Shown here piece after piece: positions 2,344 through 56,699 of a stretch of DNA of 64,000 nucleotides. The position numbers and the translations under genes are program-made. The stretch spans positions 138,541 to 202,540 of the forward strand of contig CAZWIM010000003.1 in assembly GCA_964634265.1 (NCBI GenBank), in the 5' to 3' direction. Source of the stretch: an uncultured Chitinophaga sp. (GTDB lineage: Bacteria; Bacteroidota; Bacteroidia; Chitinophagales; Chitinophagaceae). Position 1 is the first letter of the stretch. Each line of letters starts with the position of its first letter. The notes below the pieces were generated by a model. The model searched no databases. It was not told where the DNA came from and worked only from the letters and a program-made list of their open reading frames with translations.

Positions 2344-2409
2344 CAAAGCTAATATTGGGGATTTCAGAAAAAACTGATTATTATCAATTAATTTATTGAT
2401 TGCTGTCAG
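2344..2409 (-). promoter_or_regulatory. Tandem FNR-like boxes plus -7 element (sRNA promoter)
   Basis: CTGAT-TATT-ATCAA 2374-2387 and TTGAT-TGCT-GTCAG 2396-2409 (22 bp apart); TAGCTTTG 2351->2344. Confidence 0.8.
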
Positions 2410-2479
2410 GTTAGAAGCACAAGAAAAATTAGTAAGCGGATTGTCCCGAACTTTAATTCCGCAAAGATGTTACCTGAAT

Positions 2480-2701
2480 ATGAAAAAAGCTGAATTGATA
2501 CCTGTTCTGATTGTAAGCAGTTTACTTCTTTTTTATGTTGTGCTGGCTTTTTTGGATAAGGCTTCGGGTTTTACATCCTTTATTTTTTCATTCTCACCAT
2601 TTTTGGTGATTTGGCTGGTATATTCTGTAATCCGTCATGGCGAATATAAAGGAAAGGAGCTAAAATCTGATGAAGAGTTCGGGTATACAGATAAACTATG
2701 A
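2480..2701 (+). CDS. Small two-TM hypothetical membrane protein
   Basis: ORF 2396..2701, with the likely start at ATG 2480 (MKKAELIP); two hydrophobic segments and a charged tail EEFGYTD. Confidence 0.7.
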   Translation: MKKAELIPVLIVSSLLLFYVVLAFLDKASGFTSFIFSFSPFLVIWLVYSVIRHGEYKGKELKSDEEFGYTDKL

Positions 2702-3415
2702 TCAGGGATGACAGACGACCGCTTCCCCGGGTGACTGAGGTAATTCGGGGCTGATAAAAGGTATTCCGAGGTTTAATCCACGCATTATGAGTATTAGTCC
2801 CATAGCCACTACAAAATAAGGGACAGCTTTTCTCAATAATTCTCTTGTTTCCAGCTTCAGCTTTTGCCCTGCATAGGCTACCAGCATCATGGCAGGCAGA
2901 GTACCCAGGCCAAACATGGCCATAAAGCCAATGCTGTGATAGACTTCGGTAAAGGACAGGGTAGCTGCAACAGCTACATATACTAGTCCACAGGGTAATA
3001 ACCCATTGGCAAGCCCCATTAAGAGAAAACTGAAAGGACTGCCGGCATTTTTTAAGATTTTACCAATCATTTTTTGTATTGAAGCATAAAACCTGTTCAG
3101 TAAACTTAGATGAACAGTATACCGGCTAAAAAAGTATAATGCTGCAAGTAACAGGACTATTATTCCCAACCCGATAGAAAACCATTGCTGATAACCAGAG
3201 ATATAAATTCTTCTGCCGGCAAGGCCAAATACCAGTCCGATCAGGGAATAAGTAATGACCCTGCCAAACTGGTAGATTAATAGCGAGAAAAATTTTTGTG
3301 GTTTTGAAAAATGATTTACCGGTAATGCCAGGCTAAGCGGGCCGCACATGCCCACACAATGCAGGCTGCCTGCTGCACCCAATGTAAATCCTGATATTAA
3401 TACCGGCCATAGCAT
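2702..3415 (-). CDS. cbb3 assembly-associated membrane protein (DsbD_2 / TauE-SafE-like)
   Basis: GSLHCVGMCGP and NGLLPCGLVY motifs; last gene of the cco operon. Confidence 0.88.
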   Translation of the reverse strand: MLWPVLISGFTLGAAGSLHCVGMCGPLSLALPVNHFSKPQKFFSLLIYQFGRVITYSLIGLVFGLAGRRIYISGYQQWFSIGLGIIVLLLAALYFFSRYTVHLSLLNRFYASIQKMIGKILKNAGSPFSFLLMGLANGLLPCGLVYVAVAATLSFTEVYHSIGFMAMFGLGTLPAMMLVAYAGQKLKLETRELLRKAVPYFVVAMGLILIMRGLNLGIPFISPELPQSPGEAVVCHP

Positions 3416-3852
3416 TATAAAACGGTCAGGCTTTTTTCTGAATAATATGTTTTACCATCTTGTGCCCAGCTGATCTTTACTGTATAGTTACCTGAAGCAA
3501 TTTCGGTTAAAGGGAATTGCTGCTGGCCATTTTCATTTACCTGTAAGGTGAATTTTTTGTCTTTTTTCTTGTCGTAGGCGCAATAGAATAAAACATCACC
3601 AGTGATACTCTTGTTCTTCATTTCTTCAGGAAGTTGCAGCATGACGCCATTTTCAGATTGCACCAGCGTTACGGATGAGCCGAGCTCATTTGTCCGGTTG
3701 GAGGCATCAATCACCTGCTGGTAGCGTAGTTCGCTTTTGTAATAATCTTTTTCTACCAGCTCAAAATTTGTACTCATTGAACGATAGACCAGGTAGCCCA
3801 TGCCCAGGCCGAAAACGATGAATGTAACCAGTAATTTGTTGCCCCAGTTCAT
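3415..3852 (-). CDS. ccoH: FixH/CcoH family protein
   Basis: MNWG..., N-terminal TM, 'LVEKDYYKSELRYQ' motif; position in the cco operon. Confidence 0.85.
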   Translation of the reverse strand: MNWGNKLLVTFIVFGLGMGYLVYRSMSTNFELVEKDYYKSELRYQQVIDASNRTNELGSSVTLVQSENGVMLQLPEEMKNKSITGDVLFYCAYDKKKDKKFTLQVNENGQQQFPLTEIASGNYTVKISWAQDGKTYYSEKSLTVL

Positions 3853-3873
3853 AATGTTGTATTGTTGGTTTTA

Positions 3874-5319
3874 TTATAGCTTACTAAAAGGTCCCATAAA
3901 GTTAGTGCTGATAGAAGTTACTTTTTTGTCACCTTCATACAGACCTATTTTCAACCTTAATTTCCTCTTGTCGATAACATTTCTAGGCAGCACTATGAAA
4001 AATGAACCCGACGCCTGGTCTTCTTCTTTCAGCAGTATATTCTCAGTACCTATCAATTGAACATGCCCGGTTTTTCCGAAGTCTCCTTCCAGTTTTAATG
4101 TAACGGGTATATTTTTTATGGTCTTGTTGATGATCTTAATGTTATACAGGTTAGAAATGCTGTCGGCGCCTCTTTCCTGGTAGAGCTGCCCTCTTGTCCG
4201 GACAATAGTACCATCAATATCTTTTCGGCTTAGCAGCAGAGCAGAAAGTAATCCCGTAAGCACAATCAGAATAATAGTGTAAAATTTCATTCTGCCGGTA
4301 TACCGGAGTTTTTTTCCTTCCGCAATACCGTTTTCAGATGCATATCTTATAAGGCCCCTCGGTCTGTCTACTGCATCCATCATCTTGTCGCAGGCATCAA
4401 TACAAGCAGTGCAGCCTACGCATTCCATTTGTGTGCCATTACGGATGTCGATACCGGTTGGGCAGACTTTTACGCATTGAAAACAATCAATACAATCACC
4501 CGTATTCAATTCAGCTGCCTGCCCTTTTTTATATTTACCCCTGGGTTCGCCCCGTTTATAATCGTAAGCTACGATCATTGAGTTTCTGTCAAGAAGTACA
4601 CCCTGCAATCGGCCGTAAGGACAAACAACGGTGCAAACCTGTTCTCTGAAAAAAGCATAAACTCCGTAAAAAACAGCAGAAAAAATCAATATGGCCATGA
4701 AGCCAACAAAATGCTCACTTACCGGTTCGCTGATTATCTTCAGCAACTGATCCATCCCAATGATGTAAGCAAGGAAAAAGTTGGCGATGATGAAAGCAAG
4801 CAGGTAAAAGACAATATGTTTTGTTACTTTTTTCCTGATCTTCTCAGCAGTCCACGGCGATTTGTTAAGAATTTTTTGTTTGGCTGCATCACCCTCAATC
4901 AGGTATTCCATTTTACGGAACAGCATTTCCATAAAAATAGTTTGCGGACAGACCCATCCGCAAAACAACCTTCCGAATGCTGCTGTAAAAAGTACAATGA
5001 AGATAATGAAGGTTACCATCGTCAGCCCGAAGATGAAAAAATCTTGGGGCCAGAAAATTTTTCCAAAAATGATAAACTTGGCTTCAGGGATATTGAAAAG
5101 GAATAGTGGTCTTCCGTTCAATTCAATAAAGGGAAGCGCAAAGAACAATGCAAAGAAGCCCCAGCTAACCCAGGTACGGATATTGTAAAATTTACCCTTT
5201 GGTTTTTGGGCAAAGACCCATTTTCGTTTTCCTTTTTCATCAACCGTTGCTATCCTGTCCCTGAAGGACTCACCGGTTGAATTCTCATTCTCTAAATTGT
5301 TCTTTGCCTGATTTTCCAT
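3874..5319 (-). CDS. ccoG: Cytochrome c oxidase accessory 4Fe-4S protein
   Basis: FGRLFCGWVCPQT, CTVVCPYGRLQ, CIDCFQCVKVCP, CVGCTACIDAC. Confidence 0.95.
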   Translation of the reverse strand: MENQAKNNLENENSTGESFRDRIATVDEKGKRKWVFAQKPKGKFYNIRTWVSWGFFALFFALPFIELNGRPLFLFNIPEAKFIIFGKIFWPQDFFIFGLTMVTFIIFIVLFTAAFGRLFCGWVCPQTIFMEMLFRKMEYLIEGDAAKQKILNKSPWTAEKIRKKVTKHIVFYLLAFIIANFFLAYIIGMDQLLKIISEPVSEHFVGFMAILIFSAVFYGVYAFFREQVCTVVCPYGRLQGVLLDRNSMIVAYDYKRGEPRGKYKKGQAAELNTGDCIDCFQCVKVCPTGIDIRNGTQMECVGCTACIDACDKMMDAVDRPRGLIRYASENGIAEGKKLRYTGRMKFYTIILIVLTGLLSALLLSRKDIDGTIVRTRGQLYQERGADSISNLYNIKIINKTIKNIPVTLKLEGDFGKTGHVQLIGTENILLKEEDQASGSFFIVLPRNVIDKRKLRLKIGLYEGDKKVTSISTNFMGPFSKL

Positions 5320-5328
5320 TTTGCTCTC

Positions 5329-6715: not shown

Positions 6716-8857
6716 TTATTTGTTTTCAGCAATGGGTTTTTTAGCTTCTCCCTGTATATCCCGGCCTAAACGCTGCAGGTAAGCAATAAGTGCTATCACT
6801 TCAACATTGGAAGCTGTTTCGATCTTATCTTTTTTCAGATTGGCAGCAATTGAATCAGCCTGGTGCATCAGGTCACGGTTGGCAATTTTATCATAGCCAT
6901 CCGGGTAAGGTACACCCAGTGTCTTCATCGCCCTGATCTTTGCAGGAGTAGAACCTGTGTCAATTTTATTATCCAGCAACCAAATATATCTCGGCATTAA
7001 TGAGCCGGGTGATGTAAGTCTTGGGTCATACATGTGAGTGTAATGCCAGGAGTCAGGTCTTTTGTTTTTATCGTGTCCTTCTCTTGCCAGGTCCGGACCG
7101 GTACGTTTACTTCCCCACTGGAACGGATGATCATAAACAAACTCACCGGCCTTGGAATATTCACCATACCTGGCCACTTCATCACGGAACGGACGGATCA
7201 TTTGAGAGTGGCAGGTATAACAGCCTTCTCTCACATAAATATCCCTGCCCTGTAGTTCAAGTGGTGTGTAAGGCTTCACACTGGCAATGGTCGGAACATT
7301 TGATTTTACCAGGAATGTCGGGATCATCTGTACAAGGCCACCTATTGCCACAAGGATTAAACTCAATACCAGCATAGTAACAGGTTTTCTTTCAATAACC
7401 CTGTGCCAGTATTCTTTTTTAGCATGTTCTCCCTTCACCAATGGTGCTGCTTCAGCAGCTTCGTTTGCAATAAACTTACCGGCAACGATCGTTTTATAAA
7501 GATTATAAACCATCATTAATGCACCGATGAGGTATAAAGAACCACCCACACTGCGGGCAATATACATGGGCTTGATATTGGTCACAGTTTGCAGGAAGTC
7601 ATATTTAATCTGACCTTCCGGTGTAAATTGTTTCCACATCAGGCTCTGTTCAAAACCAGCCCAATACAGGGGGACAGCATATAAAATGATACCAATGGTA
7701 CCCAGCCAGAAGTGGTTAGTAGCCAACTTCTTTGAATATAGATTGGTACCCCACATTTTAGGGATCATATAATAAAGGATCGCAAATGCAAGGAAGCCAT
7801 TCCAGCCTAATCCACCGATATGTACGTGGGCTATTGTCCAGTCACTGAAGTGAGAGATGGCATTTACATTTTTCAAACTCAGCATCGGGCCTTCAAAGGT
7901 GCTCATACCATAACAGGTAATAGCCACTACCATGAATTTCAGAACAGGATCTTCCCTGACCTTATCCCATGCTCCCCGTAAAGTGAATAAGCCATTCAGC
8001 ATACCGCCCCAGCTTGGTGCTATAAGCATGACGGAGAATACAACACCCAGTGATTGTGCCCAGTCAGGCAAAGCTGTATATAAAAGGTGGTGAGGGCCGG
8101 CCCAGATATAAATAAATATCAATGCCCAGAAGTGAATAATAGAAAGTCTGTAAGAATATACCGGCCTGTTAGCTGCTTTGGGTAGGAAATAATACATAAG
8201 TCCCAATACAGGTGTGGTAAGGAAGAAGGCTACGGCATTATGTCCGTACCACCATTGTACCAACGCATCCTGTACACCGGCATACCAGCTATAGCTTTTC
8301 AATGCTGAAACTGGTATTTCAATGGAGTTAACTATGTGCAGCATAGCCACAGTAACCCAGGTAGCTATGTAGAACCAGATGGCCACATACAGGTGACGTT
8401 CTCTTCTTTTAATAATGGTACCAAACATGTTGATACCAAAAATTACCCATACCAGGGTGATAGCGATATCAATTGGCCATTCCAGTTCGGCGTATTCTTT
8501 ACCGGTTGTTTTACCCATCAGCAGAGTTATGGCTGCTGCTGCAATAATGAGCTGCCAGCCCCAGAAATGAACCCAGCTTAGCTTATCACTGAACATTCTG
8601 GCTTTACAGAGACGTTGTAAAGAATAATAAATACCGGCAAACGATGCATTACCTACAAAGGCAAAGATGATGGCGTTGGTATGCAACGGACGGAGGCGTC
8701 CGAAGGTGGTAGCGGCAAGGTTAAGGCTGCTTTCCGGATAATAGATCTGTATAGCAGCCCATAAGCCGGCCAGCATACCTACAATACCGAATAAGATCGT
8801 GGCCAAACCAAAGGCTTTAACGATCTTATTGTCATAATAAAACTTTTCTACTTGCAT
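6716..8857 (-). CDS. ccoNO: Fused cbb3-type oxidase subunits I/II (CcoN-CcoO)
   Basis: RPLHTN, QWWYGHNAVAF, WAGPHH, AHVH, then EGCYTCHSQMIRP and WGSKRTGPDL. Confidence 0.97.
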   Translation of the reverse strand: MQVEKFYYDNKIVKAFGLATILFGIVGMLAGLWAAIQIYYPESSLNLAATTFGRLRPLHTNAIIFAFVGNASFAGIYYSLQRLCKARMFSDKLSWVHFWGWQLIIAAAAITLLMGKTTGKEYAELEWPIDIAITLVWVIFGINMFGTIIKRRERHLYVAIWFYIATWVTVAMLHIVNSIEIPVSALKSYSWYAGVQDALVQWWYGHNAVAFFLTTPVLGLMYYFLPKAANRPVYSYRLSIIHFWALIFIYIWAGPHHLLYTALPDWAQSLGVVFSVMLIAPSWGGMLNGLFTLRGAWDKVREDPVLKFMVVAITCYGMSTFEGPMLSLKNVNAISHFSDWTIAHVHIGGLGWNGFLAFAILYYMIPKMWGTNLYSKKLATNHFWLGTIGIILYAVPLYWAGFEQSLMWKQFTPEGQIKYDFLQTVTNIKPMYIARSVGGSLYLIGALMMVYNLYKTIVAGKFIANEAAEAAPLVKGEHAKKEYWHRVIERKPVTMLVLSLILVAIGGLVQMIPTFLVKSNVPTIASVKPYTPLELQGRDIYVREGCYTCHSQMIRPFRDEVARYGEYSKAGEFVYDHPFQWGSKRTGPDLAREGHDKNKRPDSWHYTHMYDPRLTSPGSLMPRYIWLLDNKIDTGSTPAKIRAMKTLGVPYPDGYDKIANRDLMHQADSIAANLKKDKIETASNVEVIALIAYLQRLGRDIQGEAKKPIAENK

Positions 8858-8877: not shown

Positions 8878-9048
8878 TTATTGTGATTGCGTTTTGGTTT
8901 TACTCGCAGGTTTATCATCAAACAGGATGCGGGAGGCAGGAGAGTAATCATCTTCAAACTGGCCACTGCGAACACCCCAAAGAAAGGCAGCCAAAAAAAG
9001 GCCGGCAACGGATATGCTGGCAATAAGAAGTATTAGTATCACACTCAT
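8878..9048 (-). CDS. ccoS: cbb3 oxidase assembly protein
   Basis: MSVILILLIASISVAGLFLAAFLWGVRSGQFED; likely start 9048. Confidence 0.92.
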   Translation of the reverse strand: MSVILILLIASISVAGLFLAAFLWGVRSGQFEDDYSPASRILFDDKPASKTKTQSQ

Positions 9049-9085
9049 GTCCTGTTTTTTTGTCACCGGCAGCTGCCGGGATTTG

Positions 9086-9151
9086 TAAAAGTATTTTGAG
9101 GGTATAGGGTGTCAGGTAATAATTATCACTCAGGGAACTGATTTTTATCAT
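9086..9151 (-). promoter_or_regulatory. Tandem FNR-like boxes plus -7 element (ccoS-NOQP promoter)
   Basis: GTAAT-AATT-ATCAC 9116-9129 and CTGAT-TTTT-ATCAT 9138-9151; TACTTTTA 9093->9086. Confidence 0.75.
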
Positions 9152-9185: not shown

Positions 9186-11582
9186 CTAAAGTTTCATCTG
9201 CCTGGCTATCCAACTGCTGCTGCCAAATGTGAGCAATAAAATGCTTAATGAGCTGGCCGGCATCAGTATCGCTGCGATCAATGGCGACAAGGTGCCTTGT
9301 ACAGCAAATGACAAACCGATAATGTTGTAAACAATAGAAAGCACAAAGCTGGCAATCACGATGTTTTTATTTGCCTTGCAAAGGCTGATGAATCTTGTAA
9401 GTCTTGGTAGCTCTGATGCCCCGATAATAGCATCGCTGGAAGGAGTAAAATTGTTGGTTTGTTCAGAAATAGCAACACCTACATTAGCCTGCTTTAAAGC
9501 ACCTGCATCATTCAAACCGTCTCCAATCATCATTACCCTTTCGCCTCTGTGCTGTAGTTCATGTATATACTGCAGTTTGTCTTCTGGCTGTTGGTTGAAT
9601 AAAAGAGTAGCTTTTTCTCCCAGCAGTTTCCGGAGATTTGCTTTCTCAGTATCGTTGTCACCTGATAAAACCGATATTCTGTAGTTCTTTTTAATTTGAG
9701 CCAGAAAGCTTGACAGGTTATCCCTGTAGTGATTGCTGAACTTGAAAAAGCCAAGCATCTCATTATCAATACTGGCATAAACTACTGTGCCATCGTGGCG
9801 ATGTGGGCTGCCGCTTACAAAACCATAAGATCCAAGCTTTACAAATTTCTCACCCATATACCCTTCAATTCCCTGACCAGTGATTTCTTTAAAATTTGTT
9901 ACATCAATTCTTTTACGGGGAGCAAGATGCAGTGAGAGGGCTTTACTTAACGGATGTGAGGAATGAATAGCCAGCGATGCCAGCAGTTCTTGCTGCCTGC
10001 TATCAAGGGGTTCACCTTCAAAGGAAATATCCTGTTGCTGAGTTGTGGTCAGTGTACCTGTTTTGTCAAAGACTACATGATCGATATCTGCAATGTCTTC
10101 GATGGTTTGCGCATTCCTCAGGTAAAACCTGTTCTTGCCAAGTATCCTGAGGATATTACCGTTGGTGAAGGTATTTGACAATAGAAGGGCACAGGGACAG
10201 GCAATAATAAAAATAGCTGTTACGGCAGGCCATATTCTTGCAGGGTCATTGATTTGCCAGTATACAGCAGTACTAACTGCAATAGTAAATACTATGTAGG
10301 TGAAGTAGCGGCTGAGAAGGTGAACAAAGGATACAGATTTTGTTTCTTCCTGCCTGAATTCATCCCGGTTCCAGAGTTTGGTTAAATAACTCTGGGCTAC
10401 TTCTTTTACCACCAGTATCTCAATATTGCCTTCAGTCTGTTTTCCGCCGGCATAAACCAGTTCTCCTACTTCTTTTAATACGGGTAATGATTCACCAGTG
10501 ACGAAGCTGTAATCAATAAACGCTTTTCCTTTTGTTAAGATGCCATCTGCCGGAATCAGTTCTTCATTATGAATAAGCAGTGTATCGCCAGGTTTTATTT
10601 CGGGTAATGTTGTTGGAACTTCTTTATTATCCTTTAGTACGGAAATGGCAATGGGAAAATATGAAGTGTAATCTCTTTCAAATGAAAGCTGGCGGTAGGT
10701 TTTGTCCTGAACAATTCTGCCGGCCAGCATAAAGAAAACGATGCCTGTCATGGAATCGAAATAACCGCCGCCTGTTCCGCTTAGTACTTCATAAGCACTT
10801 CTTACAAAAGTGATGATGATGGCTAATGCAATGGGTGCATCTATATTAAGAAATCTGTGCTTTAAACTTTTCCAGGATGATTGATAAAAGGGAAGAGCAG
10901 AATATAGAAGAACAGGAATGGCCAGGCCAAAATTCAGCCAGCGGAAAACACCTCTCAGGCCCGTTTCACTGGCGTCTATGCCAAAATACTCAGGAAAACT
11001 CATCAGCATGATGTTACCAAAAGCAAAGCCAGCCACACCTAATTGATAAACCATGCTCTTATTAATAGCCGGACGTTTTTCTTTCAGGTCATTCAGGCTG
11101 ATATATGGCTCATAACCGATGCTGGTCAAAACTTCAGCTACTTTTCTCAAACTGGTTTGTCCTGTAAGCAAAACAATTTCCACTTCTTTTCGGGTAAAAT
11201 TGACCTTGCTGGAAACCACACCAGGATCAAGACGATGCAAATTCTCCAGCAAATACAAACAGGAACTGCAATGCATTTGCGGAAGGTAAAAGGTAACATG
11301 TATTTGCTTATCGTCTTTAAAGCTGATCAGCTGAAGCTGAATTTTTTCATCGTCAAGAAAAGCGAATTTATCTTTCCTTACTTTGATCCGTTGGCTGAGA
11401 CCAGGATTTTCATTCAGTGAGTAATAGTCGCAGAGAGAATGTTCATTCAGAATCTGGAATACCATTTTACAGCCTTCGCAGCAAAAATGTTTTTCTTCCA
11501 GCTGAATTTTATCGTTGGGACAAGCTTCACCGCAGTGATAGCAGCTTATTTTTTCCTTGGTAATACTGTCAGGTGAAAGCAT
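9186..11582 (-). CDS. ccoI: Cu-translocating P1B-type ATPase for cbb3 assembly
   Basis: N-terminal CYHCG/CCEGC, HCSSC, CPCAL, DKTGT, GDGLND. Start placed at MLSPDS (11582) because the predicted -7 lies at 11609-11602. Confidence 0.93.
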   Translation of the reverse strand: MLSPDSITKEKISCYHCGEACPNDKIQLEEKHFCCEGCKMVFQILNEHSLCDYYSLNENPGLSQRIKVRKDKFAFLDDEKIQLQLISFKDDKQIHVTFYLPQMHCSSCLYLLENLHRLDPGVVSSKVNFTRKEVEIVLLTGQTSLRKVAEVLTSIGYEPYISLNDLKEKRPAINKSMVYQLGVAGFAFGNIMLMSFPEYFGIDASETGLRGVFRWLNFGLAIPVLLYSALPFYQSSWKSLKHRFLNIDAPIALAIIITFVRSAYEVLSGTGGGYFDSMTGIVFFMLAGRIVQDKTYRQLSFERDYTSYFPIAISVLKDNKEVPTTLPEIKPGDTLLIHNEELIPADGILTKGKAFIDYSFVTGESLPVLKEVGELVYAGGKQTEGNIEILVVKEVAQSYLTKLWNRDEFRQEETKSVSFVHLLSRYFTYIVFTIAVSTAVYWQINDPARIWPAVTAIFIIACPCALLLSNTFTNGNILRILGKNRFYLRNAQTIEDIADIDHVVFDKTGTLTTTQQQDISFEGEPLDSRQQELLASLAIHSSHPLSKALSLHLAPRKRIDVTNFKEITGQGIEGYMGEKFVKLGSYGFVSGSPHRHDGTVVYASIDNEMLGFFKFSNHYRDNLSSFLAQIKKNYRISVLSGDNDTEKANLRKLLGEKATLLFNQQPEDKLQYIHELQHRGERVMMIGDGLNDAGALKQANVGVAISEQTNNFTPSSDAIIGASELPRLTRFISLCKANKNIVIASFVLSIVYNIIGLSFAVQGTLSPLIAAILMPASSLSILLLTFGSSSWIARQMKL

Positions 11583-11601: not shown

Positions 11602-11667
11602 TGAAAGTATTCCACTGTTAAAATACTTTATTTGAGCAACCTCAAAAAGTAAACTGATTTTTATCAG
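11602..11667 (-). promoter_or_regulatory. Tandem FNR-like boxes plus -7 element (ccoI promoter)
   Basis: TTGAG-CAAC-CTCAA 11632-11645 and CTGAT-TTTT-ATCAG 11654-11667; TACTTTCA 11609->11602. Confidence 0.8.
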
Positions 11668-13076
11668 TTCCTTTCTTCAGCAACATGGCGGGGAGCCTGG
11701 ATCGTAACCAGCTCTTCTTCAACGGTAGGCTTCTTTTGGGTGCTGCTGGCCAGTATTTTATAAACAGAAAAGATCAAAAGAAAGAGACCGGCGAAAATAG
11801 CGATGCCACTATAGGCAAATAGCTTGAACCATGGCTGGCTTTTTTGCATGATAGAAGCAAATACTTCATTGTTGAGTTTACCGCTGAGCTTCAGCAGCCC
11901 GCTGCCCAACAGAGAAATCCAGAAAAGAAGTAGCGAAATATTTGTAATGAGAATACCCCAGTTTATATGCAGTTTTTTCTTTTCAATTGCGGCTCTGTTT
12001 TCGTTTTGGATAATATAAAATAAAGATGCAAATAACAGCATTGTATTAATACCAATAGTGGCGCCCATGGCATGAGCTACTGTTATGTGAGTACCGTGAG
12101 TATAATAATTCCAGGACGGAACAGATATCGCAATAGCCAATGTAAGATTCAGAAATATCCAGATATCGGCATAGGAAAGCAGCCGATAGGGTATGTTATG
12201 ATAATTTTTCCGTGCCTGTGTCATGGTCTTTCTCCACTGCATTATTATGTATCCCAGTATAAGTAACTCCGTCATACTTATCACATAGGCTACTGTTTTT
12301 ACCCAGGGTGCAGCTGGTACTATATAAGTGTGATGGCCCCAGTTGAACATCAGGTTGGTCAACCCGAGAAAATAAAAAAAGAAAGCGATAGGCGAACGAT
12401 TGGCTTTGGTGTCACCGCTCAACTTTTCCATAACATACATACCGGTGCCGTACACCAGCATGTTCCAGCTACCTACCATGGAGCCAAGTGCTTTCCACTG
12501 CACTGTCACATCCCTGACGATATTGGTATGAAAATAATCCAGCAGCCACAAATAGGATTCAGACAAGGTAATAAAGAAGAAAAGTATACCTGTTGACCAA
12601 CTCCAGATATAAACAGGTGCGTTCTTATAATCAGGCTTAAGGGTAAAAAAGAAGTTGATAGCAAAAGGTACCCATGACAGCATGATTACTGCGCCGAGTA
12701 ACGGGGGAAACTCCAGGTATTCTCTTCCCCCAAAATAGCCAAGAAAAAAACAAACTAAAATGAGCAAAGAAACTGCTGAGTGGAGAAAAAAGTGTATCCA
12801 GGCACCTTGTTGCCAGTGAAGAGGTCTGCCTGTTACTCTTGGTAAATAGTAATATAAACCGGCTTGTGCTGCCGTAAATATCCAGCTGATAACAAGATAT
12901 ACATGCAACGGTCTTGTTTTCTGAAAGGCCAGCTGATCTTTTAAAAATGGTGGAAGGATATATTGCAGCCCGCCGATAACTCCCAGCAACAAACCAATCA
13001 GGAGGTAACTTACAGAAAGCAGTAAAAATGCCTTTGCTGTTTTGTCAGAAGTGTATATAGCAGTGTCCTTAAACAT
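11664..13076 (-). CDS. Non-canonical heme-copper superfamily subunit I (NorB/CcoN-related)
   Basis: About 12 TM; RPLH58, GREYLEFP, NWGH248H249, E270 and AH335AM337 present; helix-VI His absent (QWKALGSMVGSWN). Confidence 0.85.
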   Translation of the reverse strand: MFKDTAIYTSDKTAKAFLLLSVSYLLIGLLLGVIGGLQYILPPFLKDQLAFQKTRPLHVYLVISWIFTAAQAGLYYYLPRVTGRPLHWQQGAWIHFFLHSAVSLLILVCFFLGYFGGREYLEFPPLLGAVIMLSWVPFAINFFFTLKPDYKNAPVYIWSWSTGILFFFITLSESYLWLLDYFHTNIVRDVTVQWKALGSMVGSWNMLVYGTGMYVMEKLSGDTKANRSPIAFFFYFLGLTNLMFNWGHHTYIVPAAPWVKTVAYVISMTELLILGYIIMQWRKTMTQARKNYHNIPYRLLSYADIWIFLNLTLAIAISVPSWNYYTHGTHITVAHAMGATIGINTMLLFASLFYIIQNENRAAIEKKKLHINWGILITNISLLLFWISLLGSGLLKLSGKLNNEVFASIMQKSQPWFKLFAYSGIAIFAGLFLLIFSVYKILASSTQKKPTVEEELVTIQAPRHVAEERN

Positions 13077-13082
13077 AACAGG

Positions 13083-13460
13083 TCAGGGCTTGGATTTATA
13101 GGTTACAGCAGTTGAGTCTACATATTTTAAGTAACTGATAATATCAGCGATTTCATCAGCTTTAAAATGAAAATTGGGCATTCTGGGTCCACCTGCCTGT
13201 AAGAAGGCTTTCATATAAACTTCACCCCGTTGCGGATCGCTGTAGGCAGTTGTCAGTTCAGGACCCAGGTAGCCGCCTAAACCGTATATCTGGTGGCAGG
13301 CAACGCAATTGTATTGTTCATACAGGTATTTACCACGGGATACTTTTTCTGCTTGTTGTCCTGTTAATTGTATCTCACTTTCCGTTCCTTTTGAATAAAT
13401 GACTGTACTGTAAACCGCATAGCTGGTGAATAAAGTGAGAAAGACTGCTATTTTGATCAT
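13083..13460 (-). CDS. Membrane-anchored monoheme cytochrome c (NorC-like)
   Basis: N-terminal TM, CVACHQIYGLGGYLGPELT, PRMP axial Met. Confidence 0.88.
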   Translation of the reverse strand: MIKIAVFLTLFTSYAVYSTVIYSKGTESEIQLTGQQAEKVSRGKYLYEQYNCVACHQIYGLGGYLGPELTTAYSDPQRGEVYMKAFLQAGGPRMPNFHFKADEIADIISYLKYVDSTAVTYKSKP

Positions 13461-13480: not shown

Positions 13481-13546
13481 CGAAAGTATTTTCAGGCTTT
13501 GCAGGCAGCGGTGATTTTTCTCAGCCACCGGCCTGATAGTTCTCAT
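13481..13546 (-). promoter_or_regulatory. Tandem FNR-like boxes plus -7 element (norCB-like promoter)
   Basis: GTGAT-TTTT-CTCAG 13511-13524 and CTGAT-AGTT-CTCAT 13533-13546; TACTTTCG 13488->13481. Confidence 0.78.
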
Positions 13547-20752: not shown

Positions 20753-20818
20753 CAAAAGTATCAGGGAGTAAAACTGTATAATATGACAACCATCAAATAA
20801 TCAGCTGATATTTATCAC
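20753..20818 (-). promoter_or_regulatory. Tandem FNR-like boxes plus -7 element (nos promoter, possibly bidirectional)
   Basis: ATGAC-AACC-ATCAA 20783-20796 and CTGAT-ATTT-ATCAC 20805-20818; TACTTTTG 20760->20753; degenerate TTTTTTTG 20841-20848 at the mirror position on the + strand. Confidence 0.8.
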
Positions 20819-20825
20819 CTTGAAA

Positions 20826-20843
20826 TAGGACAGCTTGGTCTTT
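20826..20843. promoter_or_regulatory. Candidate Rrf2 operator 2 (autoregulatory)
   Basis: TAGGAC-AGCTTG-GTCTTT, same GAC-N6-GTC core as operator 1, overlapping the rrf2 promoter. Confidence 0.55.
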
Positions 20844-20852
20844 TTTTGCAAA

Positions 20853-21293
20853 ATGGTATGTTCTAAGTCTTTTGGATATGCTCTAAGGGGGATACTTTAT
20901 GTTGCATTGATGAATGATCAGAAGCCCCGGGTACAGGTAGAAGAAATAGCTGAAAAGCTATCTGTACCCAAGCATTACCTGGGTAAGATTATGAAGCAGG
21001 TGGTGAAAGAAGGTATCCTATCATCTACAAAAGGTCCTTATGGCGGTTTTTCTTTAAATGAAACTACGCTTTCAAGTCCTTTGATTAATATCCTTAAGAT
21101 CACAGATGGGTTTGAACAATTCAATACCTGTGTGCTAAGATTAAGAAAATGCAATTCCAGCCGTCCTTGTCCGCTTCATGACCAGATTGAAGCTAACAGG
21201 AAGCAATGGTTACAAATATTTTCTAAAACCAGTATAGGAGACCTTTTGAACAAAGATGAAGTCAGCTTCCTGGAAGGGCTGGCAACTATTTAA
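20853..21293 (+). CDS. Rrf2-family transcriptional regulator (Fe-S type, possibly NO-responsive)
   Basis: SKSFGYALR, STKGPYGGF wing, CVLRLRKCNSSRPCPLH; ATG 20853 preferred over TTG 20835. Confidence 0.9.
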   Translation: MVCSKSFGYALRGILYVALMNDQKPRVQVEEIAEKLSVPKHYLGKIMKQVVKEGILSSTKGPYGGFSLNETTLSSPLINILKITDGFEQFNTCVLRLRKCNSSRPCPLHDQIEANRKQWLQIFSKTSIGDLLNKDEVSFLEGLATI

Positions 21294-21305: not shown

Positions 21306-21371
21306 GATATAAAAATCATTCTCCGGCCTGATTTAAGTCAGGTCAGCAGCATATTACATATTCTAATTTGC
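21306..21371 (+). promoter_or_regulatory. Tandem FNR-like boxes plus -7 element (ric promoter)
   Basis: GATAT-AAAA-ATCAT 21306-21319 (half site) and CTGAT-TTAA-GTCAG 21328-21341; TAATTTGC 21364-21371. Confidence 0.65.
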
Positions 21372-22229: not shown

Positions 22230-23477
22230 ATGCATCTTGACGCAGCACATATGACATCTCTGTTCGAGAATGCTACAGAGGGAATTATTTTGGTAAATCA
22301 ACAAGGGGAGATTGTATTGGCCAATCCTTCTGCTGGCCGGATGTTTGGCTATGAACCGGACGAACTGATCGGACAACAAATTGAAATACTTATTCCTGAG
22401 AGGTTCAGTACTCATCACCATCATCACAGAGATGGGTTTTATCAAAAACCATCAAACAGGGTTATGGGGCAGGGCCGGGATCTGTATGGTAAAAGAAAAG
22501 ATGGCACTGACCTGCCCGTGGAAGTTAGTCTGAGCCATTATAAAAAGGAGGATCAGCTTTTTGTGATTGCCTTCATTGTTGATATTACAAAGCGGAAAGA
22601 AATAGAAAGCAGCATGCTTCAGCAAAAGCGGGAGCTGGAAAAGATCACCGATAAAATACGGCAGCTTAATGCCAGCCTGGAAGTAAAGGTAGAAGAACGG
22701 ACACTTATATTGAAAGAAGCATTGCAGAAGCTTGAGCAGTCACAATTGGAACTGAGTGAAGCACTGGATAAAGAAAGACAACTGAATGAGATCAAAAGCC
22801 GCTTTGTTTCAATGGCGTCTCATGAGTTCAGGACACCGCTGAGTACTGTTCTTTCTTCGGCATCATTGCTGTCTAAATACAAAACAGGAGAAGAACAGGA
22901 GAAAAGGGATAAACATATTCAGCGGATCAAGAATTCAGTCAATCACTTAAATGACATACTGGAGGACTTCCTTTCTTTGGGCAAACTGAATGAAGGAAAA
23001 GTTGATAAAGTAGCCGACCAGGTTTCCCTTAAGGAAGTAATACTTGATACAATGGATGAGATGAGGGGCATTTTGAAAAAAGATCAATACTTTGATTTCC
23101 AGTGTGATTCTGATTGTAATGCCTGTACGGATAAAAAGCTATTCAAAAATATCCTTATCAACCTGATCAGCAATGCCAGTAAGTTTTCCGACGAAGGAAA
23201 GAAAATCCTTATCAAGAGCAAGGTAGAAGATGATAATGTTATTGTCTCCGTTATTGATGAGGGAATTGGTATATCCGAAGAGGATCAGCTGCATCTTTTT
23301 TCCAGCTTCTTCCGTGGGGCCAATGCTACCAATATCCAGGGCACCGGCCTAGGATTGCACATTGTGAAGAGTTATATTGATCTGCTGGGAGGGGATGTAA
23401 GATTAAAGAGTACGTTAAATACAGGAACAACAATTACCTTTACGGTTCCTGTAAATTTACTTGAAAAGGAAGAATAG
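22230..23477 (+). CDS. PAS-domain sensor histidine kinase (FixL/DosP-like PAS)
   Basis: PAS with HHHHHR..F...P..RVMGQGRDLYGKRKDG; SHEFRTPL H-box; NLISNASKFS; DEGIG; GTGLGL. Confidence 0.92.
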   Translation: MHLDAAHMTSLFENATEGIILVNQQGEIVLANPSAGRMFGYEPDELIGQQIEILIPERFSTHHHHHRDGFYQKPSNRVMGQGRDLYGKRKDGTDLPVEVSLSHYKKEDQLFVIAFIVDITKRKEIESSMLQQKRELEKITDKIRQLNASLEVKVEERTLILKEALQKLEQSQLELSEALDKERQLNEIKSRFVSMASHEFRTPLSTVLSSASLLSKYKTGEEQEKRDKHIQRIKNSVNHLNDILEDFLSLGKLNEGKVDKVADQVSLKEVILDTMDEMRGILKKDQYFDFQCDSDCNACTDKKLFKNILINLISNASKFSDEGKKILIKSKVEDDNVIVSVIDEGIGISEEDQLHLFSSFFRGANATNIQGTGLGLHIVKSYIDLLGGDVRLKSTLNTGTTITFTVPVNLLEKEE

Positions 23478-23512: not shown

Positions 23513-24568
23513 ATGAAATCAATACTGGTAATAGATGACAACCCCGATATCAGGGAGAATACCGCAGAAATCCTGGAGCTGGCAGGATATAAAACCCTGA
23601 CAGCTGAAAATGGTAAGAAGGGTGTTGAGTTAGCCCAAAAAGAAAAACCAGATGTTATTGTTTGTGATATAATGATGCCTGAACTTGACGGGTATGGTGT
23701 GTTGCACCTGCTCAGAAAGAACCCGGAAACAGAGCAAATCCCATTTTTATTTCTTACTGCTAAAACAGAGAGAAGTGATTTTCGCAAAGGGATGGAAATG
23801 GGAGCTGATGATTATATTACCAAGCCATTCGAAGACATCGAATTACTGAATGCCATAGAAACCCGTCTTCGCAAAGCGGCGATCATGGATAATAAGTATG
23901 CCGCATCTCATCAAGGTATCAACCAGTTCATTAAGGATGTAAAAAATTCAGGACTGATGAGCCAGCTGGCTGATCAGTACGATGTAGAAGTTTATACAAA
24001 GAAGCAGACACTTTACCAGGAGGGAAAACGGCCAAGGTTCCTCTATTACCTGGTCAAGGGCAAGGTGAAAGGATTTAAGACACATGAAGATGGTAAGGAA
24101 TATATAACGGATCTGTTCAGCGATGGCGACTTTATTGGCTATCCTGCTTTAATTGAGGATAAAAACTATGATGATTCTGCTGTTATCCTTGAAGATGCAG
24201 AGATCATGCAGATACCCAGGGAAGATTTTCTGCAAATGATCTACGGCAATATAGATATCGCAGCTAAGTTTATCCGGATTATTACACAGAATGTTAAAGA
24301 AAAAGAAGACAGGCTGCTGAACCTTGCTTACAGCTCGTTAAGAAAAAGAGTAGCAAAAGCGTTGGTGGATATACATGGTAAATTCAACGCAGAAAACCCT
24401 AGTAAGCCCCTTGAGATTTCAAGAGAAGATTTTGCGCATTATGTAGGAACGGCTACGGAATCCCTTATCCGTACACTTAGCGATTTCAAGTCCGAGAAAC
24501 TCATCGAAATAAAAGATGGAAAAATATCTATCATCAATTTAGATAAGCTCAAAAACTTATTATTTTAA
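23513..24568 (+). CDS. Response regulator with REC plus Crp/Fnr (cNMP + HTH) domains
   Basis: ILVIDD, CDIMMP, KPF receiver; Crp fold; HTH GTATESLIRTLSDF. Confidence 0.92.
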   Translation: MKSILVIDDNPDIRENTAEILELAGYKTLTAENGKKGVELAQKEKPDVIVCDIMMPELDGYGVLHLLRKNPETEQIPFLFLTAKTERSDFRKGMEMGADDYITKPFEDIELLNAIETRLRKAAIMDNKYAASHQGINQFIKDVKNSGLMSQLADQYDVEVYTKKQTLYQEGKRPRFLYYLVKGKVKGFKTHEDGKEYITDLFSDGDFIGYPALIEDKNYDDSAVILEDAEIMQIPREDFLQMIYGNIDIAAKFIRIITQNVKEKEDRLLNLAYSSLRKRVAKALVDIHGKFNAENPSKPLEISREDFAHYVGTATESLIRTLSDFKSEKLIEIKDGKISIINLDKLKNLLF

Positions 24569-25079: not shown

Positions 25080-25119
25080 AAAACTGAGTTTTAAGGTGAT
25101 CATTAATTCCAATTCAGGA

Positions 25120-25186
25120 GAAAGTTATTTTGAGATCTCAGCGAGAAACAATGACAGACGTAAGTTGTAATACTGATTTTTGTCAG
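25120..25186 (-). promoter_or_regulatory. Tandem FNR-like boxes plus -7 element (hsp20 promoter)
   Basis: ATGAC-AGAC-GTAAG 25151-25164 and CTGAT-TTTT-GTCAG 25173-25186; TAACTTTC 25127->25120. Confidence 0.7.
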
Positions 25187-25226: not shown

Positions 25227-25646
25227 TTAGCTGAAAGCATCCCTGTTAATATCATAGTCATCAGGAGGCAATTCTTTATCTTTTCCGTTCGTTATTTCCC
25301 TCCCATGATTATTTTGCTGCTGAAGGGTCCAGTTGTCAGTCATGGTCGTTTCAAGCCAAAGGTTACCTGATTTTCTAAAGACCTGTACAGCAAGATTGAA
25401 TTTATCTTTAAATAGTTTTTCCAGTTCGTTCACTTTCATATCTTCTTCAATCTCAATGACACCGCCTTGCAGTGAAAGATTATTGTCGCCCAGTTTTCGG
25501 TTATGCGGGATAATCTGTTTTACAGAAAAGTCTGACCGGGAAAAGGACTTATTATTGAAGAATTCAATTTTCAGGAACGGAAATGCACTATTGAAATCCT
25601 TTTGGATCTCACTAATCAGCCGCTCAGGTGCAATGTACAACTCCAT
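25227..25646 (-). CDS. Hypothetical cytoplasmic protein with internal duplication
   Basis: ORF 25227..25667, likely start MELY (25646); two homologous halves. Confidence 0.75.
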   Translation of the reverse strand: MELYIAPERLISEIQKDFNSAFPFLKIEFFNNKSFSRSDFSVKQIIPHNRKLGDNNLSLQGGVIEIEEDMKVNELEKLFKDKFNLAVQVFRKSGNLWLETTMTDNWTLQQQNNHGREITNGKDKELPPDDYDINRDAFS

Positions 25647-25769
25647 ATTCACTGAATTAGTAAACATAGTTTAATGAAATGTCAGATACCTGCCCAGTAT
25701 ACCCAAAGGGTTCTCGCTTAGCTCCTACTAACACTATTGATAAGGGCATAAAGAGAAGGTTATTTATGA

Positions 25770-25835
25770 CGAAGCTAACCTCCTCCTTAGCGGATGTGAA
25801 TGATGCAAATAATACAACAGGATGATTTTCATCAC
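25770..25835 (-). promoter_or_regulatory. Tandem FNR-like boxes plus -7 element (hypothetical gene promoter)
   Basis: ATGAT-GCAA-ATAAT 25800-25813 and ATGAT-TTTC-ATCAC 25822-25835; TAGCTTCG 25777->25770. Confidence 0.75.
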
Positions 25836-53561: not shown

Positions 53562-53810
53562 ATGGCAATGTTTGAAGATTATGAAAAGAAGAAACGAAAC
53601 CAGGTTTCGTTGATGAAATCCCTGATGGATTATGGCATGGGGCTGATTATCCTTTTATTAGGTGTGTTTTTCTTCTTCCGTAACCAGTTCAAACTTTCTT
53701 TTAATGAAAGATTTCCTCCTGATGATATTGATAAGATACTGGGTGTAATGTGTATCATCTATGGCATCTGGAGGATTTACAGGGGGTATAAGAAAAACTA
53801 TTTTAAATGA
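53562..53810 (+). CDS. Small two-TM membrane protein
   Basis: 82 aa; YGIWRIYRGY; ATGA overlap with the next gene. Confidence 0.75.
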   Translation: MAMFEDYEKKKRNQVSLMKSLMDYGMGLIILLLGVFFFFRNQFKLSFNERFPPDDIDKILGVMCIIYGIWRIYRGYKKNYFK

Positions 53811-54745
53811 GTTGCCGCACAATCAGGAAGATCCCCGGTTCTTTTATTTTCATAGTTACGATGCTGGTTTCTGTGATAGGGTGTAAATCGTTTAAAGAGC
53901 AGGAGGATGAGCTGCCGGATAACAGGAGAAGAGGTACAATCTATGTCAGTGCAGATGAATCCTTCAAGCCGATCATCGATGAGCATGTTAAGGTGTATGA
54001 ATCCAATTATCCCGGTACTAAAATCAATGTAGATTATAAACCCGAAGCCGAATGCCTGAAAGATATGCTCATTGACAGCATCCGGCTGGTTATTACGACA
54101 AGGACTTACCACCAGGATGAAAAGGACTTTATAGTTGACTCTTTACGAAAATCGCCCAGGAGCATGGTGGTGGCAAGGGATGCAATTGCGGTGATTGTTC
54201 ACCCGGATTCACCCGATACACTATTTACTATGTCAGAAATAAGGGAAATACTTACCGGCAGGTACAAGAAAAAGTTAATTCCTGTTTTTGACGGCGTAAA
54301 AGCAACCAGTACAGTACGTTTTGTCATCGATTCAGTGTTAAGGGGTGATTCACTGACACCGGAGGCAATGGCGGCCAGGAGTAGTGAAGGTGTGATTGAT
54401 TATGTGGCAAAAACTCCCGGGGTGATTGGCTTCATTGGTGTTAGCTGGATAGGTAACCCGGAAGATTCAAGTCATCTAAGTTTTTTGAAAAAGGTAAAAG
54501 TGGCATCATTGGAAAGCACAGATATACCAGATGCATATGTTAAAGCTTACCAGGCAAACATTTACATTAAGCGGTATCCAATGGTACGGGATTTGGTTTA
54601 TATACTTAAAGAAAACCACAAGGGATTAGGAAATGGATTTGCCAATTTTATGAGCGGAGAGATCGGACAAATGATATTCAGAAGGGCCTATTTGGCACCG
54701 GCACAAAAAAACTTTGGAATCCGGCCCATCAGGCTGAATGAGTAA
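53807..54745 (+). CDS. PstS-like substrate-binding lipoprotein
   Basis: Lipobox VIGC; VSADES, DAIAVIVHP, YPMVR. Confidence 0.85.
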   Translation: MSCRTIRKIPGSFIFIVTMLVSVIGCKSFKEQEDELPDNRRRGTIYVSADESFKPIIDEHVKVYESNYPGTKINVDYKPEAECLKDMLIDSIRLVITTRTYHQDEKDFIVDSLRKSPRSMVVARDAIAVIVHPDSPDTLFTMSEIREILTGRYKKKLIPVFDGVKATSTVRFVIDSVLRGDSLTPEAMAARSSEGVIDYVAKTPGVIGFIGVSWIGNPEDSSHLSFLKKVKVASLESTDIPDAYVKAYQANIYIKRYPMVRDLVYILKENHKGLGNGFANFMSGEIGQMIFRRAYLAPAQKNFGIRPIRLNE

Positions 54746-54792
54746 AAGAAGGAGTTAGTTATATTTACAAACTTTTTAAAAGAAGAAGTAAA

Positions 54793-56559
54793 ATGAAGAA
54801 AACCTTAATTACACTACTTGCATCAGGGCTGCTATCGGTTGCGGTGCAGGCACAAACACTGCAGGAAGGGATTAACAATCTCTATGCGGGAAGGATCAAA
54901 AACGCCATCTCAGTTTTTGAAAAACTACTGGCTGTCAACCCCAATAATATTGAGGCTATATACTGGCTTGGCCAGACGAAACTGGAGACAGATGAGATCA
55001 TGGGGGCCAGGTTAAAGGATGTTCGAAGCATTTATGAAAAGGCGCTTCAGGCAACTAATGGTGCACCACTCATTAAAGTTGGTATGGGCCACATAGACCT
55101 GCTGACCAATAAGAATGAGGATGCCCGTCAGCATTTTGAGTCAGCCTTGACTATGACCCGTACAAAAAAGGGAGATGATCCTGTTATCAGCACTGCTATT
55201 GGCAGGGCCATTACAGATTCCAAAAATGGTGATTTCGCCTATGCCATCAGGCTGCTGGAAGATGCTGCATCAAAGGATCCAAAGAATACAGAAACATTAT
55301 TGCAACTGGGTAATGCTTACCGCAAAGCAAGACCCGGTGAGGGTGGAGGTCTGGCCTTTCAGACCTATAAAAAAGCTATTGAAGTCAATTCAAGCTTTGT
55401 TGGTCCGTATCTGAGGCTGGCCAAACTTTTTGAATCGCAGAAAAACTGGGAACTTTACTTACAGTACCTGAATGACGGCGTGGCAAAAGATCCTAAGTTC
55501 ACTGCCGCTTATTATGAACTATTCTATTATTACTTCTTCAGAGCACAGTTTACCGAAGCGGAAAATTACCTGACAAAGTATATTGATAGTAAATTACCCG
55601 AAACTGATATCCAGGACCAATTCCTGTACGCACAGCTATGTTGGGCTAAAAAGGATTTTAGTTGTGCTATCAGTAAAGCCGAAATTGTATATGTAGCGAT
55701 GGGTGATGTAACCAAGCCCAAAGTTTTCCGCCTGCTGGCAGATGCCTATTTCCAGAAAGGTGACTATGCTAATGCCAAAAAATACAGCGACCTGTTTTTC
55801 CAGAAAAAGAACCCGGATGATTATATTTCCGGAGACCATAAGATAAGAGCGGACATTTTATCCAAAACAGGGGGCACTACTGACGAGATATTTGTGAATT
55901 ACCTTCAGGGTTCTGTACTAGACACCTTACTTAGCTCTAAAATAGATTTTTTAAAACAAGGTGCTGAGTTTTTGAAAGCAAGGGGCGATAGTATCAGCCG
56001 GGTAAGGGAAGGCGATCTTCGACTTGAAATTGTTAAGCTAAAAGGGGATAAAGCAGGTCAGAGAGACTTCTTCGATGCCGGCTTTGCCTACTACCAGGGT
56101 AAAAATTATGAAAGAGCAGACAGTGTATTTGATGTTTTTACAGAAAAGTTTCCTGATGAAGTTTACGGCCCAATGATGCAGTATAATATTCACAGGGCAC
56201 TCGACAGTACCATGGAGAAGGGAATGGCAGTACCCTGGGCAGAAAAATACCTGAACATTCTCGAAAAAGATACCGCTAAAAATAAAAAGACGATTATCGG
56301 TGTGGCCAGCTACCTGGCATCTTACCATGCTAATATTGTAAAAGACAAAGAAAAGGCATTGGAATACCTGAGAAAGATGCTGGTGCTTGATCCTACAAAT
56401 GAAATAATAAAAAATAATATAAGTGTGCTGGAAAAAGCTCCGGCAACAAAGCCACCTTCACCTTCTAAGGGCGGGGCAACACCGGCGCCGGCCAAAACGG
56501 GTAATCCTAAGCCTTCCGCAAAGACAACAATAAATAAAGAAATTCCTATAAAGACTTAG
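54793..56559 (+). CDS. Secreted tetratricopeptide-repeat protein
   Basis: Signal peptide ending VQA-Q; multiple TPR-like helical pairs. Confidence 0.85.
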   Translation: MKKTLITLLASGLLSVAVQAQTLQEGINNLYAGRIKNAISVFEKLLAVNPNNIEAIYWLGQTKLETDEIMGARLKDVRSIYEKALQATNGAPLIKVGMGHIDLLTNKNEDARQHFESALTMTRTKKGDDPVISTAIGRAITDSKNGDFAYAIRLLEDAASKDPKNTETLLQLGNAYRKARPGEGGGLAFQTYKKAIEVNSSFVGPYLRLAKLFESQKNWELYLQYLNDGVAKDPKFTAAYYELFYYYFFRAQFTEAENYLTKYIDSKLPETDIQDQFLYAQLCWAKKDFSCAISKAEIVYVAMGDVTKPKVFRLLADAYFQKGDYANAKKYSDLFFQKKNPDDYISGDHKIRADILSKTGGTTDEIFVNYLQGSVLDTLLSSKIDFLKQGAEFLKARGDSISRVREGDLRLEIVKLKGDKAGQRDFFDAGFAYYQGKNYERADSVFDVFTEKFPDEVYGPMMQYNIHRALDSTMEKGMAVPWAEKYLNILEKDTAKNKKTIIGVASYLASYHANIVKDKEKALEYLRKMLVLDPTNEIIKNNISVLEKAPATKPPSPSKGGATPAPAKTGNPKPSAKTTINKEIPIKT

Positions 56560-56581
56560 AACTCGGTTTTCTTCTTTTACA

Positions 56582-56624
56582 AAAGAAAATCCCTTGCTGT
56601 TATGGTGGGGGATTTTTCTTTTTT
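56582..56624 (+). terminator. Terminator after TPR gene
   Basis: AAGAAAATCCC...GGGATTTTTCTTTTTT. Confidence 0.7.
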
Positions 56625-56633
56625 GTTTAAAAA

Positions 56634-56699
56634 CTGATGATAACCACATAGTACTATGATTTTTAATTAGGGTATTTTGCGCCGGTCACCTTATTTTTG
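56634..56699 (+). promoter_or_regulatory. Degenerate tandem FNR-like boxes plus perfect -7 element (nuo promoter)
   Basis: CTGAT-GATA-ACCAC 56634-56647 and ATGAT-TTTT-AATTA 56656-56669; TATTTTTG 56692-56699 at the same 23-bp offset. Confidence 0.55.

Follow-up and report, generated by a model that had tools for sequence, protein, structure and literature searches.

A shared promoter plan was identified in a 64,000-nucleotide (nt) stretch of DNA from an uncultured Chitinophaga sp. (contig CAZWIM010000003.1 of assembly GCA_964634265.1; hereafter the window), in which two Crp/Fnr-type boxes start 22 bp apart and the promoter-proximal box is followed, after 23 nt, by the -7 element of Bacteroidota promoters. 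This paired-box pattern is real and lies far beyond chance in the source genome (3.6 Mb, 41.5% GC, in which the window is C3:138541-202540) and in other Chitinophagaceae, and the 22/23 plan recurs throughout the class Bacteroidia, where it was found in 10 or more other families. Pairing of the boxes is dominant, being nearly but not strictly obligate. Judging from the sequences, these are probably activator-dependent low-oxygen promoters on which two dimers of one regulator would sit side by side, the regulator here most likely being REC-Crp, a receiver-Crp fusion protein encoded in the window.

Geometry and anatomy of the paired boxes

On the transcribed strand, the distal core comes first, the proximal core starts 22 bp downstream, and a TAnnTTTG-like element follows after a further 23 nt. 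For counting, a strict box was defined as TGAY-N4-RTCA, a 12-nt core, and a -7-like element was accepted when TAnnTTTG was matched at 5 or more of 6 positions. The boxes of an earlier note on this DNA were 14-mers, so that the cores begin 1 nt further in; the box and -7 coordinates listed there all held on re-reading of the sequence. Strict single boxes occurred in the source genome at about the chance rate (269 vs. about 280 predicted by base composition). Second boxes with 7 or more of 8 positions matched lay 22 bp from a strict box in 21 cases, as compared with 0-6 cases at the other offsets between 12 and 60, and with a looser second box (6 of 8) the count at offset 22 was 44 against approximately 8. 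In a sample of 80 loci (820 kb) taken from other Chitinophagaceae species around orthologs of the REC-Crp regulator, 130 second boxes were found at offset 22, the other offsets giving 0-7, and a -7-like element stood exactly 23 nt past the proximal box in 128 cases, the remaining gaps between 0 and 69 having 0-8 each. When -7 elements were counted from any strict box, they peaked only at gap 23 (97 cases) and gap 45 (102 cases), the background being about 4; since no further peak was seen, positions of the class I type and other helical registers were rejected.

A position weight matrix scan of the source genome gave 75 strand-hits of at least 16 bits, with a single one in the reversed genome; hits having a -7 element at gap 23 numbered 21-26, with 0 in the reversed control, and 34 candidate promoters were obtained when gaps of 22-24 were permitted. 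The enrichment at 22 and 23 bp over background, which the earlier note had proposed as a check, was thus clear in the source genome and in the 80 loci alike. No general peak at 44 bp, as three boxes in a 22-bp register would give, was found in the offset count of the source genome, which held a few triple sites only. Among the extended arrays, five boxes at C15:3663-3767 (starting at 3663, 3685, 3712, 3734 and 3756) form a pair and a triple in the 22-bp register and precede a cytochrome gene of the PSCyt1 type whose -7 element is perfect (TACTTTTG); box triples were also seen at G028:C2:2518584-2518639 and G008:C123:4534-4591 in two further genomes.

The two boxes were shown to differ in their internal structure. 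In samples that were not selected on the measured box, the promoter-proximal half-site of the proximal box was nearly invariant (T 0.98, C 0.90, A 0.96); by information content, the upstream half of this box is degenerate (2.8 bits vs. 5.3 bits for the downstream half). In the distal box, the centre is rich in A on the sense strand (A at 0.71 in position 5), an asymmetry unlike a plain palindrome. As compared with the FNR box TTGAT-N4-ATCAA, the core TGAY-N4-RTCA was matched and the outer T/A was not conserved, position -1 being occupied by C (0.44), A (0.29) or T (0.15). Almost no information was carried by the sequence separating the two boxes, or by the 23 nt that lead from the proximal box to the -7 element.

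Promoters of Bacteroides and Flavobacterium have TAnnTTTG centred near -7. With regard to the Bacteroidota sigma-A consensus, the promoters described here carry this -7 element and lack the TTTG of the -33 element: no TTG or TTTG was conserved at the -33 position (columns 34-39, about 19 nt upstream of -7), a region occupied by the proximal box. Because no TTTG is present where -33 would fall, the proximal box stands in its place. If the -7 motif is placed as in Bacteroides and Flavobacterium, the box centres would lie near -41 and -63 relative to the predicted transcription start. The view of the earlier note that the boxes are sites of the Crp/Fnr type, held in a constant register relative to the promoter, was supported.

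Candidate regulator and distribution across Bacteroidia

The earlier note had named an adjacent REC-Crp protein as the probable binder, and the domain content of the encoded regulator (Table 1) agreed with that description. Its Pfam matches (PF00072, 9e-31; PF00027, 5.8e-20; PF13545, 4.1e-14; PF00325, 1.5e-5) place it in the Crp/Fnr family, and its canonical receiver residues (DD, D52, T and K) together with the adjacent kinase gene identify it as a response regulator. It differs from FNR sensu stricto in having no N-terminal Cys cluster, its only Cys being located in the receiver domain. The recognition helix has E and R as in FNR, with Ile replacing the FNR Ser. Orthologs with 56-92% identity were almost confined to Chitinophagaceae, and no solved structure or curated family covers the fusion. 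Cultivable relatives having the module include Sediminibacterium magnilacihabitans DSM 22423, Segetibacter aerophilus and Flavihumibacter cheonanensis. In the kinase encoded upstream of it, PAS residues 5-139 align to residues 122-256 of FixL (NF041777) with 114 bits, the family cut-off being 850. A run of five His residues (HHHHH) lies within this FixL-like PAS domain.

To define the distribution of the geometry, 151 Bacteroidia genomes were profiled according to whether they encode a full-length REC-Crp (86 genomes), a partial match only (32) or neither (33). At least two tandem matches were present in 73 of the 86 genomes with full-length REC-Crp, in 19 of the 32 with a partial match and in 1 of the 33 with neither (Fisher's test for full-length REC-Crp vs. 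all others, p = 1e-11), and next to no matches were obtained in controls with the reversed pattern. Most of the partial matches were stand-alone proteins of about 240 amino acids with FNR-like N-terminal Cys clusters (CxxC-x8-C) and the helix GTATE(T/S)xIR, whose genes adjoin tandem boxes. One genome, G095, lacks REC-Crp and has 16 paired matches with a -7 element at gap 23. When the gap was left free between 15 and 31 in 14 genomes of 12 other families, 35 of the 42 matches (from 11 genomes of 10 families) were at 23.

Since genomes having only stand-alone paralogs show the same 22/23 plan, the geometry, as far as sequence comparison tells, belongs to the Bacteroidia FNR-like clade with the helix GTATE(S/T)xIR and is not tied to the receiver fusion. 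Pairing through the receiver domain, i.e. a REC-REC bridging of dimers, was not supported, on the same observation. In one genome (G131:C1:1599614-1600661), a receiver (76% identical) and a Crp part (42% identical) occupy two adjacent open frames, representing either a split gene or a frameshift.

In the source genome, REC-Crp is the sole protein with the recognition helix of the clade. Around its gene, tandem promoters were approximately 16-fold denser in the 80 species. REC-Crp is thus most likely, as judged from its sequence and genomic context, the regulator that reads the paired boxes in this organism.

Promoters of the window and the predicted regulon

The features of the window are summarized in Table 1. 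When each site was scored, seven promoters were strong, namely those of the small RNA (sRNA), ccoS, ccoI, the nor-like genes, nos, hsp20 and the hypothetical gene. Of the nine promoters claimed in the earlier note, these seven and, as a weaker case, ric are credible, and the ninth, nuoA, failed both per-site scoring and conservation. A tenth promoter, that of the Rrf2 gene, was absent from its list.

Table 1. Promoters and genes of the window (positions are those of the window; rejected candidate included).
Feature	Position	Strand	Elements and remarks
sRNA promoter	2344..2408	-	distal 2397-2408 (TGACAGCAATCA), proximal 2375-2386 (TGATAATAATCA), -7 2344-2351 (TAGCTTTG)
ccoS-ccoNO-ccoP-ccoG (cbb3 oxidase) promoter	9086..9150	-	distal 9139-9150, proximal 9117-9128, -7 9086-9093
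ccoI/fixI (P-type ATPase) promoter	11602..11666	-	distal 11655-11666, proximal 11633-11644, -7 11602-11609
nor-like promoter	13481..13545	-	distal 13534-13545, proximal 13512-13523, -7 13481-13488
nos/Rrf2 divergent pair	20753..20848	.	common boxes 20784-20795, 20806-20817
ric (ScdA/hemerythrin) promoter	21307..21371	+	weak distal 21307-21318 (ATATAAAAATCA), strong proximal 21329-21340, atypical -7 21364-21371 (TAATTTGC)
hsp20 promoter	25120..25185	-	distal 25174-25185, proximal 25152-25163, -7 25120-25127, gap 24
Promoter of hypothetical gene 25227-25667	25770..25834	-	distal 25823-25834, proximal 25801-25812, -7 25770-25777
nuoA candidate promoter, rejected	56635..56699	+	-7 56692-56699 real; "proximal box" 56657-56668 is no box
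Predicted sRNA, about 95 nt	2243..2338	-	two hairpins and intrinsic terminator 2270-2249
PAS-HisKA-HATPase sensor kinase	22230..23477	+	PAS resembles FixL haem-PAS
REC + cNMP_binding + HTH_Crp response regulator, 351 amino acids, candidate binder	23513..24568	+	recognition helix GTATESLIR

The ccoS promoter heads an operon consisting of a CcoS-like open reading frame (8878-9066), a COX1 + FixO gene (6716-8857), FixP and FixG. The ccoI/fixI product matched the Pfam entries E1-E2_ATPase and ATPase-cat_bd, its ATG start being likely at 11582, and the nor-like promoter precedes genes for a cytochrome c (13083-13460) and a COX1-family subunit (11664-13076). At the divergent module, the nos operon (cytochrome c, NosZ and downstream genes) is read leftward from a -7 element at 20753-20760 and the Rrf2/NsrR-like gene (ATG at 20853) rightward from one at 20841-20848, so that the distal box of either promoter is the proximal box of the other. 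The ric promoter has a proximal box of 13.6 bits, a distal box of 5.2 bits and a poor -7 element. The genes for the kinase and for REC-Crp are probably transcribed from it as well. Tandem promoters on the same strand, 1.25-3.5 kb ahead of the REC-Crp gene, were present in 28 of 59 relatives, and for this reason the ric promoter stays plausible though weaker. At hsp20, the proximal box has a good downstream half-site only, and in orthologous promoters (five cases in the fetched flanks) the distal box was conserved along with the downstream half alone of the proximal box. The hypothetical gene 25227-25667 had no Pfam match.

The Rrf2 ATG lies 12 nt past the T of its -7 element (20841-20853, + strand), and the hsp20 start codon (TTG at 25112, according to the list of open reading frames) lies 15 nt past that of its own (25112-25127, - strand). 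In view of these short distances, both mRNAs may be leaderless or nearly so.

The nuoA candidate was rejected because its "proximal box" scored -5.9 bits and its distal match was not conserved, no box pair being found upstream of nuoA in any of 29 family relatives; the -7 element was kept in 28 of these 29 upstream regions. This element (56690-56700; loci L089-L117) is nearly invariant as TTATTTTTGC across the family and often follows directly after a terminator-like hairpin of the upstream gene.

The sRNA promoter, with scores of 12.2 bits (distal), 13.4 bits (proximal) and 9.4 bits (-7) and a gap of 23, precedes a predicted transcript that folds with a minimum free energy of -33.1 kcal/mol (z = -4.5) and ends at a match of the terminator scan; no Rfam family matched it. 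By analogy with FnrS, the FNR-activated sRNA of enterobacteria, it may be a functional analogue, being likewise a small RNA transcribed from a promoter of an oxygen regulon, although it has no sequence or Rfam relationship to FnrS.

In the source genome, the regulon thus includes the cbb3 oxidase and its assembly genes, the nor-like genes, nos, Rrf2, RIC, Hsp20 and the sRNA, and the paired module was also found outside the window, at two Usp genes, a beta-carbonic anhydrase, an MBL-rhodanese protein, a YeeE-type transporter, a PLD-family protein, the PSCyt1 cytochrome and others. On the basis of the predicted gene functions, it reads as a hypoxia, denitrification and stress programme. The same paired-box promoter with an MlaE-like gene occurs in identical sequence at C14:8863 and C51:8860, which points to assembly redundancy or a recent duplication.

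A second set of promoters was detected upstream of the window (C3:64238-79418), where seven single GTGA-N6-TCAC boxes without a partner stand exactly 23 nt from a -7 element. They precede genes for an MBL-rhodanese paralog and for YeeE-like, TauE-like, Dps-like and thioredoxin-like proteins, and adjoin a Crp-family gene of 205 amino acids (C3:79432) with the helix REVISR. This single-box regulon is probably a sulfur or persulfide response using a classical single class II site. Because these boxes show gap 23 without a partner, the 23-nt offset appears to be general for Crp-type activators, and the pairing specific to the clade.

Proposed mode of activation and its meaning

Several observations weigh against two dimers of REC-Crp acting together at these promoters. 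Among 97 strict proximal boxes, about 17 had no recognisable distal box where about 4 would be expected by chance, corresponding to approximately 12-15% of promoters near REC-Crp genes, and 8 of the 86 REC-Crp genomes had no strict tandem match at all. Two further Crp-family proteins of the source genome, C3:79432 and C6:18653, have an E..SR helix and could in principle read TGA-N6-TCA. In addition, the apparent trade-off, strong distal boxes going with weak proximal ones, is confounded by the way in which the sites were selected, and the site counts in the 80 loci are not independent events, these loci being orthologous regions. From the promoters lacking a distal box it follows that one dimer can suffice, and the term "obligate", used for the tandem in the earlier note, is too strong.

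These same promoters would agree with an arrangement in which the proximal box alone activates, the distal box serving for repression, anti-activation or as the proximal box of a divergent promoter, with no cooperation between dimers; so would the two-sided pairs, which numbered 17 of 144 in the 80 loci. Most pairs, however, had a -7 element on one side only, and a strict box in the distal position was almost never alone: a proximal partner (at least 6 of 8 positions) accompanied it in 89 of 102 cases, the rest being at about background. The base-pair exactness of the spacing moreover speaks for direct contact between dimers, and we consider activation by the proximal box alone unlikely. An origin of the pairs as a mere by-product of divergent promoters was rejected on the same count of two-sided pairs.

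The binder could instead be one of the two small Crp-family proteins, given that the E..SR helix of both is compatible with TGA-N6-TCA half-sites, in which case REC-Crp would merely be a member of the regulon. Such an assignment is improbable in view of the separate set of single GTGA-N6-TCAC boxes that C3:79432 adjoins, of the tandem sites across the 151 genomes, which follow the REC-Crp/FNR-like clade, and of the clustering of paired promoters within 6 kb of REC-Crp genes in the 80 species. To much the same low degree, we would credit a reading of the two boxes by two different Crp/Fnr-family proteins, by which the promoter would integrate two signals. Many Bacteroidia genomes do encode REC-Crp together with a stand-alone FNR-like paralog having the same helix, and the distal box with its A-rich centre differs from the proximal box with its degenerate upstream half; yet the source genome has one protein of the clade and about 25-34 paired promoters, G095 shows the same pairs in the absence of REC-Crp, and in divergent promoters each box serves both as distal and as proximal. 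Finally, strict boxes taken singly are about as frequent as chance predicts, yet an origin of the pattern by chance, or from a dispersed repeat or mobile element, has practically no probability left, having been ruled out by the reversed-genome control (0-1 matches), by reversed-pattern controls near zero in 190 genomes and by the spacer columns, whose lack of information means that the sites are not copies of one element.

Returning to two dimers of REC-Crp, we infer the following scheme for the signal, the binder, its stoichiometry and its cooperativity. Low oxygen would be sensed by the FixL-like PAS kinase and lead to phosphorylation of REC-Crp, two dimers of which would then occupy the box pair next to each other, on nearly one face of the DNA, replacing the -33 element. 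The proximal dimer, at about -41, would act as a class II-type activator touching RNA polymerase, and the distal dimer, at about -63, would stabilise it by direct contact, the usually stronger distal box helping to load the often degenerate proximal one. Feedback of REC-Crp on its own operon through the ric promoter is probable. This scheme would be in keeping with a spacing of exactly 22 bp, with the degeneracy of the proximal half-site and with the scarcity of promoters that have a distal box only.

Class II FNR and CRP promoters of E. coli have their site centred at -41.5, the FNR box being TTGAT-N4-ATCAA with a TGA-N6-TCA core. The promoters described here resemble them in having a Crp/Fnr palindrome with the same core over the position of the upstream element, at a fixed distance from the downstream element, and differ from them in the second box 22 bp upstream in most promoters, in the Bacteroidota type of the -7 element and in the outer T/A, which is not conserved. 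Tandem CRP/FNR pairs are found in E. coli class III promoters, at -41.5 with about -90 or at -61.5 with -93.5. To our knowledge, known class III pairs are separated by a variable distance of about 30 bp or more, so that the alpha C-terminal domain can be accommodated; two activator dimers on the same DNA face are common to them and to the arrangement proposed here, in which, however, the dimers would abut at 22 bp with a spacing that is invariant across a bacterial class. In the FixL-FixJ-FixK cascade of rhizobia and Caulobacter, single FixK boxes are located at fixNOQP/ccoNOQP. The system of the window shares with this cascade a haem-PAS-like kinase, an output of the Crp/Fnr type and the targets (cbb3 oxidase, fixGHIS and denitrification genes). 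It differs in that the receiver and the Crp/Fnr part form one polypeptide, with neither a LuxR output of the FixJ type nor a separate FixK step, in that the kinase scores well below the FixL cut-off (114 vs. 850 bits), and in that the boxes are paired where those of FixK are single.

The earlier note knew of no description of the tandem geometry, and in line with this, the searchable literature, subscription-only papers being outside its scope, yielded no account of this architecture, nor of REC-Crp regulators from Bacteroidota. The Crp/Fnr activator, the class II position, the FixL-like kinase and tandem activators are all of known kinds. As new elements, the comparison suggests the fixed abutting pair as the dominant promoter plan of a whole class and the receiver-Crp protein as its probable reader.

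It is conceivable, though we put it forward only tentatively, that aerobic Bacteroidia possess a distinct mode of activation in which promoters that have no -33 element are served by the FNR-like clade essentially in the form of two dimers in contact with each other, at about -41 and -63. The clade would then sense its signal via an Fe-S cluster or via a fused receiver fed by a FixL-like kinase, and the distal dimer would take the place of the alpha C-terminal domain or UP element of Proteobacteria. If this is true, one module would, throughout the class, govern respiration under hypoxia, the reduction of N2O and a stress set resembling dormancy.

The geometry gives low-oxygen promoters a grammar that is precise and can be tested. 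It applies to a large class of ecological importance that has been little studied genetically and to which the N2O reducers with clade II nosZ in soils and wastewater belong. It makes possible the prediction of a regulon from sequence alone, comprising the paired promoters of the source genome with an unannotated sRNA among their targets, and identifies the likely master regulator. It also raises the mechanistic question of how two abutting Crp/Fnr dimers would activate a polymerase of the sigma-A(Bfr) type in the absence of a -33 element.

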